DNA from: Escherichia phage HannyBb
Reading direction: 5' to 3' (one strand)
Length of the DNA: 45,272 bases
Sequence record: PP925841.1
This document shows, in pieces, positions 21,931 through 23,064 of this stretch (position 1 is its first letter; the number at the start of each line of letters is the position of its first letter). The notes beneath the pieces are model-generated. The model saw only the letters and a program-made list of their open reading frames with translations, ran no database searches and was not told where the DNA came from. The translations under genes were made by a program, and so were the position numbers.

Positions 21931-22157
21931 AAAAAGGTGAGCTGTATATGCAACGGAGGAAGAAACCTCGTTGCGGGAAGCCTGGAAGAAGTATCGGGTG
22001 TTGCTGAACCGTGTTGATACGTCAACTGCACAGGATATTGAATGGCCAGCACTGCCGTAGGGTAAAACATATAAATTCTATAATTAGATGTATCTTTCCA
22101 TTTACGGCAAGGAAGGGGGCTTGGAAGACGTAAGGCATCTCACACCGAGATTATTTT

Positions 22158-22748
22158 TTATATGTCAGGTGTCTGAAGTTTTGCTTTGGCTCTTAAAATG
22201 GTTTGCCGCGAGGTTTTGAATTCCCGGGCAATGGCACTTATACTTACACCTGACTTAATCCGTTCGAATACCACCTGTTTCTGTTCTTCATTTAACACAG
22301 GTGGTCGACCAAAACGTTTCCCTGCGCCCCGGGCTCTTACTATCCCGGAATGAGTGCGTTCAAGTAAAAGGTCTCGTTCAAATTCAGCGACTGCTGAAAT
22401 TACTTGCATCATCATTTTTCCTGTTGGACTGGTCAGGTCAATGCCCCCCAATGCTAAGCAATGCACTCTGATACCTGTTTCGGTCAGTTGTTCCACTGTT
22501 TTCCTGATATCCATTGCATTACAACCAAGGCGATCCAGTTTTGTCACAATCAATTGATCACCACATTTCAGGCGAGCAAGCAACCGGTTAAAACCAGGAC
22601 GCTCACTGGTTGCTGCTGAGCCGCTAATGTGTTCTTCGATTATTTGCTGAGGTTTGATTTTAAAACCTGCACTTTCGATTTCCCGGCGTTGATTTTCGGT
22701 GGTCTGATCCAGCGTTGATATCCGACAGTAAGCAAAAATTCGAGACAT
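22158..22748 (-). CDS. Small serine recombinase (resolvase/invertase family)
   Basis: 196 aa; N-terminal catalytic motif [13 protein letters not shown], resolvase catalytic core, C-terminal helix-turn-helix ([18 protein letters not shown]). Confidence 0.82.
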
Positions 22749-23064
22749 AGTGAGACTCTATACGAAATTGGTGTTCATATCATAATGCATCTCAGAAAAT
22801 AATTTTGATTATTTTTGTGCATGTTTGTATGTACACGTTCGAAAATAAACGAATGCGTATGCAACCCCGTAATTTTGGTGAGACCCAAAATCGATTTTGT
22901 GAAAAATAGCTTTAACTCGGTTTGTTTTTCGAGTTCCGGGCGGACTCAAGGAAGAAGAATAGTGTTGCGTGTTATTTTAACCAGATTTCAAGTTGTTTGG
23001 TTGTGGAAAAGTGGAGCAAAATGTTGTTAAAGTGGAAAAATGATAAAAAAGTAAGTTTATTATA

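Follow-up and report, generated by a model that had tools for sequence, protein, structure and literature searches.

This report concerns the pinQ/pinR-type serine recombinase gene of Escherichia phage HannyBb, which lies beside the tail-fibre genes at positions 22158–22748 (minus strand) of the 45,272-nucleotide sequence analysed here (PP925841.1; in the following, the window). We propose, with a probability of roughly 0.8, that its product, PinQ, is the leftover resolvase of a decayed 834-bp mini-element of the Tn3 family, with no recombination substrate in cis and no role in switching tail fibres. By its sequence the gene looks like part of a transposase-less element at 22115–22948 in the order terminal inverted repeat (IR), res site, tnpR, IR, the 'TIME-RES' type of organization. 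A cis substrate and a tail-fibre inversion switch would both be absent from the HannyBb phage because the IR ends, the res half-sites and a catalytic arginine are degraded. None of the papers available for searching links pinR or pinQ to Tn3, tnpR or resolvase in this way, and the view of the gene as the fossil of a TIME-RES-type element in which a catalytic arginine is mutated seems to be new.

The gene and its plasmid-borne relatives

The gene itself is already known. Its open reading frame (ORF) of 196 amino acids (aa) has the Pfam catalytic domain Resolvase (2.5e-36) and the C-terminal helix-turn-helix HTH_7 (3.8e-11) of a small serine recombinase. The region 21600–23400 is 99.9% identical to phage Tritos and to a prophage that E. 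coli LF82 carries at ydfJ, the integration site of Qin in K-12, and in which RefSeq names the gene pinQ. The ORF is the PinQ/PinR of lambdoid phages of the Qin/Tritos type. A 1.8-kb query with the pinQ module was matched in 5223 of the 5426 complete E. coli genomes searched (at least 80% of the query in 2647 of them), with a median of 2 copies per genome. The family carries the label 'DNA invertase' in PHROG 125; NCBIfam returned only sub-threshold matches, e.g., to Mpi and XisF, and no defence-system model of PADLOC matched.

In a protein search the next relatives below the clusters of 99–100% identical PinQ/PinR proteins were 83–85% identical and mostly plasmid-borne; 1858 plasmid records encode a relative of PinQ. 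On plasmid pRM10386-2 the gene for an 84%-identical protein is divergent from a 914-aa transposase ORF (DDE_Tnp_Tn3, 1.5e-123; DUF4158), both within an element of ~3.8 kb that has 38-bp inverted repeats (GGGGTCCGCTTGGAAAACGGAAAATATCCCACGCTAAG) and a perfect 5-bp duplication (TTTTA/TTTTA). On these features the element is to be regarded as a bona fide Tn3-family transposon and its resolvase as a close relative of PinQ. A 74%-identical copy on a Yersinia plasmid, beside genes for arsenic resistance, also has a divergent tnpA start next to it; this locus may be Tn2502. The clade further includes a resolvase that neighbours partition genes on an IncFII plasmid of Klebsiella. At the DNA level the window and the plasmid copies are homologous over a stretch that begins 57 nt before the ATG and ends 39 nt after the stop codon, at the IR (window position 22119).

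The most informative relative is found on plasmid p1540-4. It is an intact 851-bp unit without a transposase, in which an upstream IR (GGGGTCAGTTTGGAATTCGGAAAATAAACCATGTTAAG) and a spacer precede res and tnpR and a second IR closes the downstream end; the window is colinear with it throughout. No target duplication was found around this plasmid mini-element, all copies examined sharing one locus with unlike flanks (TTAGC and AAGGA).

Three observations on the wider family may be added here. On the ColV-type plasmid p14EC047c (L085, ~4995–5286) there is a geneless miniature Tn3-family element of ~290 bp with the order IR, res-like region, IR, the left part of which alone is matched in hundreds of E. 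coli plasmids. Four proteins (P0004, P0005, P0007, P0008) are mosaics with the N-terminal part of the plasmid TnpR (Arg76) and the C-terminal part of PinQ, which suggests either recombination of plasmid tnpR with prophage pinQ or chimeric assemblies. Finally, on the phage-like Arsenophonus nasoniae plasmid paNv_CH7 (L006, 4106–4708) a relative with 66% identity, whose res is fully conserved, stands between genes for terminase and portal, beside a YafQ/DinJ toxin-antitoxin pair; it is another resolvase module inside phage DNA.

Terminal repeats and putative target duplication

Both termini expected from the plasmid elements, ~38-bp repeats of the Tn3 type (GGGG...ACGYTAAG), are present in degenerate form at the predicted positions. 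The repeat adjoining the 3′ end of pinQ (IR-down, 22115–22149, plus strand, read from outside inward) has the sequence GGGGGCTTGGAAGACGTAAGGCATCTCACACCGAG and aligns with the plasmid IR GGGGTCCGCTTGGAAAACGGAAAATATCCCACGCTAAG with 26 matches and one 3-nt gap; it is colinear with it in a MAFFT alignment. The repeat upstream of pinQ (IR-up, 22911–22948, minus strand, again from outside inward; TGAGTCCGCCCGGAACTCGAAAAACAAACCGAGTTAAA) starts with TGAG and matches the upstream IR of p1540-4 in 26 of 38 positions and the IR of the full transposon in 24 of 38. When both strands of the 45-kb window were scanned without gaps for the transposon IR, IR-up ranked first and IR-down second, and they stand in inverted orientation on either side of pinQ. 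A terminal repeat starting at GGGTCTCACC, inside one of the palindromes discussed below, was also considered and dropped when the p1540-4 alignment placed the repeat at 22911–22948.

A 5-bp target duplication is a hallmark of the Tn3 family. The element is flanked by the direct repeat AGGAA, its putative target-site duplication, with the left copy at 22110–22114 (...cggcaAGGAA|GGGGGCTTGG) and the right copy at 22949–22953 (GGACTCA|AGGAAgaag), provided that the tip of IR-down is at 22115. No remnant of a Tn3-type transposase was detected in the window by tblastn with TnpA of pRM10386-2 (nothing better than E = 0.78), and the element would therefore be non-autonomous, of the TIME-RES type. The Qin copy of K-12 and the divergent allele of the P0009 type have the same structure and the same flanks, which argues for one old insertion.

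The res site and its decay

In five relatives from four genera, among them the E. coli transposon and the Klebsiella, Yersinia and Arsenophonus plasmids, half-sites of the form TGTCCGAAA/TTTCGKACA occur at fixed distances from the ATG. They make up a res of three subsites: site I (26 bp) at −115/−98, site II at −75/−52 and site III at −34/−21, each with 0–2 mismatches, mostly 0–1. The point of crossover can be read from the p1540-4 mini-element, which is identical to the ~290-bp TIME of the ColV plasmid up to TGTCCGAAATCG and from the next bases onward to the full transposon. The sequence thus switches exactly at the centre of site I, the signature of hybrids made by a resolvase, which identifies this centre as the crossover point.

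The region upstream of pinQ in the window is homologous to and colinear with this res, but its half-sites are degenerate and one half of site I is gone. The relic of site I, the 26-bp crossover site, lies at 22836–22861 (minus strand) and aligns with TGTCCGAAATCG-AC-CGGTTTCGGACA of the relatives; its right half (TTTCGAACG) is preserved with 2 mismatches and its left half is lost. The relic of site II (22790–22821, minus strand), with half-sites 14 bp apart, is the sole match in the window to TGTMCRAAA-N14-TTTYGKACA (3 mismatches) and aligns with site II of the relatives. The relic of site III (22759–22777, minus strand) reads TGAACACCAATTTCGTATA as compared with TGTACACCCATTTCGTACA in the relatives and contains the half-site TTTCGTATA; just upstream of it is a −10-like TATGAT (22779–22784, minus strand), which is TATAAT in the plasmid copies. 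Only three half-sites are recognizable in the window (TTTCGAACG, TTTCTGAGA and TTTCGTATA, 2 mismatches each), and all six have at least 2 mismatches.

The res region of the window has 64% identity with that of the plasmid copies, as compared with 83% for the coding region and 70% for its third codon positions. The res has therefore drifted without constraint.

Between two prophage alleles (window versus L082/L083) the pinQ–ydfK intergenic region (22749–23064) is 96% identical, the coding region 90% and its third codon positions 84%. That the non-coding DNA is better conserved than pinQ could be due to constraint or to mosaic recombination.

The catalytic residues of PinQ

In PinQ the residues S11, Y7, R9, Q15, Q20, R50, D72, R73, E124 and R125 align with the catalytic set of serine recombinases, Cys76 being the sole exception. 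Cys76 (in DRLGCN) aligns with R71 of Tn3 and γδ resolvase, where Gin, γδ and all transposon relatives have DRLGR; of the catalytic arginines corresponding to R8, R68 and R71 of Tn3 resolvase, the last is thus missing. Position 76 is Arg in 112 and Cys in five of the 117 best representatives of the family in which the motif occurs; all of the latter five are clusters of the PinQ/PinR lineage, and the 85%-identical P0009 allele is among the Cys-carrying clusters. Cys76 is also found in PinQ of K-12 (L084, 1712–2302) and in 80 of 80 IMG/VR copies. In Tn3 resolvase the exchanges R71A and R71K abolished recombination and decreased cleavage ~1000-fold (PMC2794168). We infer that catalysis by PinQ is weak or absent. 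Cys76 also bears on the published claim, discussed below, that PinQ itself inverts DNA.

A preliminary description of this DNA had called the N-terminus of the recombinase resolvase-like. This is correct only in part: the enzyme does group with transposon and plasmid resolvases, its closest relatives. Among solved structures, on the other hand, Gin invertase scores higher (105 bits) than γδ/Tn3 resolvase (~82 bits).

The palindromes upstream of pinQ

The same description had correctly placed the recombinase, now confirmed with Pfam, beside fibre genes that are intact on one strand, and had drawn attention to TTTTGG-TGAGAC-CCAAAA at 22873–22890, to CAAAATCGATTTTG at 22886–22899 and to CGTTCGAAAATAAACGAATG at 22836–22855, all of which are found at these positions. 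It proposed that they form either a res-type site or the crossover site of an inversion switch. The first proposal holds for CGTTCGAAAATAAACGAATG, which is the right half plus spacer of the site I relic; the palindromes at 22873–22899 lie outside the homology to the res subsites. They are located 125–151 nt upstream of the ATG of pinQ (22748), in the spacer (22862–22910) that separates res from IR-up. By a manual count of matched alignment columns this spacer is ~60% homologous to the equivalent spacers of the plasmid mini-element and of the ColV-plasmid TIME, in which the palindromes are not conserved in register; the homologous spacers carry different small dyads in other registers.

The palindromes are real yet only marginally above chance. 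In the window 7 perfect 14-bp palindromes were observed versus 2.8 expected. The chance of at least one in the 316-bp intergenic region of 34% GC is ~0.05 and that of a hairpin of the 6-6-6 type ~0.5. Folded as RNA, the palindromes form weak hairpins (−7 to −9.5 kcal/mol, z about −2). The other six perfect 14-bp palindromes, at 25959, 25974, 30940, 31259, 39192 and 44983, are unrelated to the copy at 22886; two of them are 15 bp apart inside an exonuclease VIII-like gene.

Nothing was found of the second proposal, the hidden switch. The window contains no second copy of the 27-nt palindrome region (at most 3 mismatches) or of the 14-mer (at most 2 mismatches), no match to the crossover consensus of the Din family, TTNTCNNAAACCNNGGTTTNNGANAA (at most 3 mismatches), and no dyad of the site I type (at most 3 mismatches). 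The pix repeat of e14 has one resemblance in the window, at 29378, at chance level, and the only long inverted repeats flanking any segment are chance-level pairs. A 21-nt direct repeat (22752–22772/23660–23680) was set aside as being, by our own estimate, at chance level. Orientation was uniform among the assemblies: in 80 IMG/VR contigs with pinQ there was no minus-strand alignment within 1.5 kb, and the palindrome was never inverted. As far as assemblies can show, the switch is refuted on the three grounds that the description itself had named: the lack of a second site, uniform orientation, and the grouping of the enzyme with transposon and plasmid resolvases.

Proposed history of the locus

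The history that would account for these findings begins with a mini-element that was inserted once, long ago, between tfa and ydfK of an ancestral lambdoid phage and decayed later. In the intact relatives the enzyme would bind to the three dyad subsites that make up res, directly before its gene, and resolve cointegrates by crossover in the middle of site I; judging from Tn3, it would also repress its own promoter inside res. In the window the terminal repeats would have lost their GGGG ends, site I one of its halves, and the enzyme, by exchange to cysteine, the arginine equivalent to R71. The palindromes at 22873–22899 would be spacer sequence of the old element.

Several points weigh against this history. 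Each IR taken alone is barely above the best background match (24–26 versus 22–23 of 38 positions), and the AGGAA duplication assumes a 3-nt deletion at the tip of IR-down. An empty tfa–ydfK site was not found: a synthetic junction had no spanning match in the 5426 E. coli genomes, the exact 18-mer of the empty junction gave only chance matches in unrelated taxa in viral and genome contigs, and a degenerate 32-mer had no match in metagenome and viral contigs. The single insertion is for this reason inferred rather than witnessed. The higher score with Gin than with the resolvases of known structure has been mentioned. The protein is also under purifying selection. Comparison of the window with the P0009 allele yields a ratio of nonsynonymous to synonymous substitution rates (dN/dS) of 0.36 (34 nonsynonymous changes at 450 sites, 26 synonymous changes at 138 sites; Fisher p = 3e-4). 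PinQ is therefore retained for something and is not a freely drifting pseudogene; this function may be DNA binding or a role in trans, possibly autoregulation at the relics of sites II and III.

A possible role as trans-acting invertase or modulator

In 2025 Kirigo et al. (NAR, PMC12529663) reported that overproduction of PinQ raised the proportion of the inverted P segment of e14 from ~30% to 88% and protects against phage T2, and that deletion of pinQ lowered survival of T2 challenge. If this effect in trans is direct, the Cys76 enzyme must be catalytically active, which is a further point against the history proposed above. PinQ would then be an active invertase with its substrate, the e14 P segment with its pix sites, in another prophage, and the palindromes would not be involved. 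The score with Gin, the GRPP motif that the two enzymes have in common and the purifying selection on the ORF are in line with such an activity, which we nevertheless regard as doubtful. In ΔpinE strains that kept pinQ and pinR the P segment was locked (PMC12529663). The paper mentions no resolvase or transposon origin of PinQ and describes neither a catalytic mutant nor a pinE-free test of PinQ (PMC12529663). Moreover, Cys76 replaces an arginine that is essential for recombination in Tn3 resolvase, and PinQ has its nearest relatives among resolvases whose res is made of three subsites. The ancestral half-site TGTCCGAAATCG agrees with the pix half-site TTCTCCCAAACC in only 5 of 12 positions when compared in register by us (a resemblance of 8/11 holds only 1 nt out of register and was rejected). 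Since the window has no pix site, such a role would be possible only in hosts carrying e14.

The published effect could also be indirect. PinQ/PinR, having lost res, mobility and one catalytic arginine, might have been exapted and kept in nearly all E. coli as a DNA-binding modulator of recombination by others, such as the PinE-dependent inversion in e14, thus affecting phage resistance but not catalysing inversion. We consider this extension of the fossil reading improbable.

Other functions of the upstream region

The palindromes could be regulatory, as an operator, a terminator of ydfK or an element of the pinQ promoter, and unrelated to recombination. They lie between the stop codon of ydfK and the promoter region of pinQ, they show no change between alleles with 10% divergence in coding sequence, and a minus-strand RNA hairpin is predicted at 22860–22905 (z = −2.1). 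We give this explanation little weight: the hairpins are weak, have no U-tract and coincide with no predicted terminator-like site, Rfam has no family that fits the pinQ–ydfK intergenic region, and the register is not conserved in the plasmid mini-element or the TIME, with chance probabilities of 0.05–0.5.

Quite unlikely is a res or crossover site that still works and at which PinQ resolves multimers of phage or prophage or recombines with a second prophage copy. Its position is that of res in Tn3-type elements and site II is recognizable; the 96% versus 90% identity of intergenic and coding DNA between the two prophage alleles and the median of 2 module copies per E. coli genome also speak for it. 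Against it stand the lost left half-site of site I, the lack of any site-I dyad (at most 3 mismatches), a divergence at or beyond the synonymous rate and the loss of the catalytic Arg. The three surviving half-sites differ in their outer bases, which means that no new consensus has evolved, and the recognition helix is almost unchanged from that of the plasmid enzyme.

A cryptic switch of the tail-fibre genes or of a promoter with the palindrome 22873–22899 as crossover site, as first suggested from a neighbourhood that recalls Gin, Cin and Pin and in agreement with the invertase label of PHROG 125, is hardly credible in view of the missing second palindrome copy, Din-type sites and flanking inverted repeats in the window, of a pinQ gene whose 3′ end rather than 5′ end faces fibre genes intact on one strand, of 0 inverted among 80 viral loci and 2648 E. 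coli records colinear over at least 80% of the 1.8-kb query, and of the published finding of no inversions in Qin or Rac (PMC12529663).

Neighbouring genes

The order of genes around the element is stf, two fibre-associated genes, a 102-aa ORF and a C-terminal remnant of tfa, followed on the opposite strand by pinQ, ydfK and ynfT and then by the attachment region and int. The tail-fibre genes at 17900–20272 and 20563–21594 are intact, both on the plus strand. The remnant of the tail-fibre assembly gene tfa (21950–22060, plus strand; a RefSeq pseudogene in LF82, its translation read by eye) lies outside the mini-element and comprises only the last ~35 codons. It is preceded by a fibre module that takes the place of the usual stf-tfa pair and consists of stf (17900–20272), a 93-aa ORF, a 343-aa fibre protein whose chaperone domain is of the Peptidase_S74 type, and the 102-aa ORF. 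tfa is thus reduced to its C-terminal end because the fibre module was replaced; in the phages Turner, Kati, mEp460 and 2H10 an intact stf-tfa pair stands beside pin. Upstream of the mini-element is a cold-shock gene of the ydfK type (23065–23331, minus strand; RefSeq, PHROG 2718).

Two matches to Rfam families of small RNAs (sRNAs) were seen in these flanks. At 21928–22026 (plus strand), overlapping the tfa remnant, there is a sub-threshold match to the sRNA candidate family IS009 (65.7 bits versus a gathering threshold of 117, E = 1.2e-13), and at 23700–23837 (plus strand), in the attachment-site region between ynfT and int, a weak match to CssrB, a chromosomal sRNA of Shigella (28.7 bits, E = 0.007).

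Comparison with known systems and significance

In 2014 Szuplewska et al. described TIME-RES (PMC4133298), a non-autonomous element of the Tn3 family with terminal IRs, res and a resolvase gene and without a transposase. The element in HannyBb resembles it in having 38-bp Tn3-type IRs that enclose only res and tnpR, with a 5-bp flanking duplication, and it has an intact E. coli counterpart on p1540-4. It differs in that the resolvases are of unrelated lineages (196 aa here versus 309 aa in the TIME-RES of Pseudomonas) and in that the copy in the window is decayed (IR tips, res half-sites, catalytic Arg) and fixed in lambdoid prophages, whereas TIME-RES was captured as an active transposon. IS101 and res-bearing TIMEs are miniature Tn3-family derivatives that have kept their IRs and res (PMC13367494). 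The ~290-bp element of the ColV plasmid belongs in this company and supplies the same IR, spacer and left half of site I as are found in the p1540-4 mini-element; these elements are geneless, whereas that in the window carries a resolvase.

The ~3.8-kb transposon, as found in pRM10386-2 and on IncI, IncK and IncF plasmids, has a resolvase 84% identical to PinQ (74% in the case of the Yersinia copy), the same geometry and position of res and an IR directly after the stop codon. The window, unlike the transposon, lacks tnpA, has another upstream IR and spacer and degenerate half-sites, and encodes Cys rather than Arg at position 76.

With the Din invertases (Gin of Mu, Cin of P1, Hin, PinE of e14) PinQ shares the fold of small serine recombinases, the GRPP motif in the arm and the place beside tail-fibre genes. 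Site I in its ancestral form has the 26-bp (12+2+12) geometry of their crossover sites, and the published action in trans on the e14 P segment may be added to the likenesses. Members of the Din family are about 60–70% identical to one another. PinQ shares only 36% of its residues with Gin and, according to published work, 38% with PinE, and thus falls short of the identity within the family. Furthermore, neither an adjacent invertible segment nor inverted crossover sites accompany pinQ, which is convergent with the fibre genes, and its relatives come with a transposase and a res of three subsites.

In thousands of genomes of E. coli and its phages, pinQ and pinR bear the annotation 'DNA invertase'; they have recently been proposed to form the first recombinase-activated anti-phage system. 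If PinQ is indeed the resolvase of a decayed mini-element, its place beside the fibre genes would be an accident of insertion and would not indicate a host-range switch; the name 'Pin' and the annotation as invertase would mislead, and the published mechanism of inversion in trans would need a direct test. The locus would then be a dated, near-universal example of a portable res/tnpR cassette that has become fixed in prophages.

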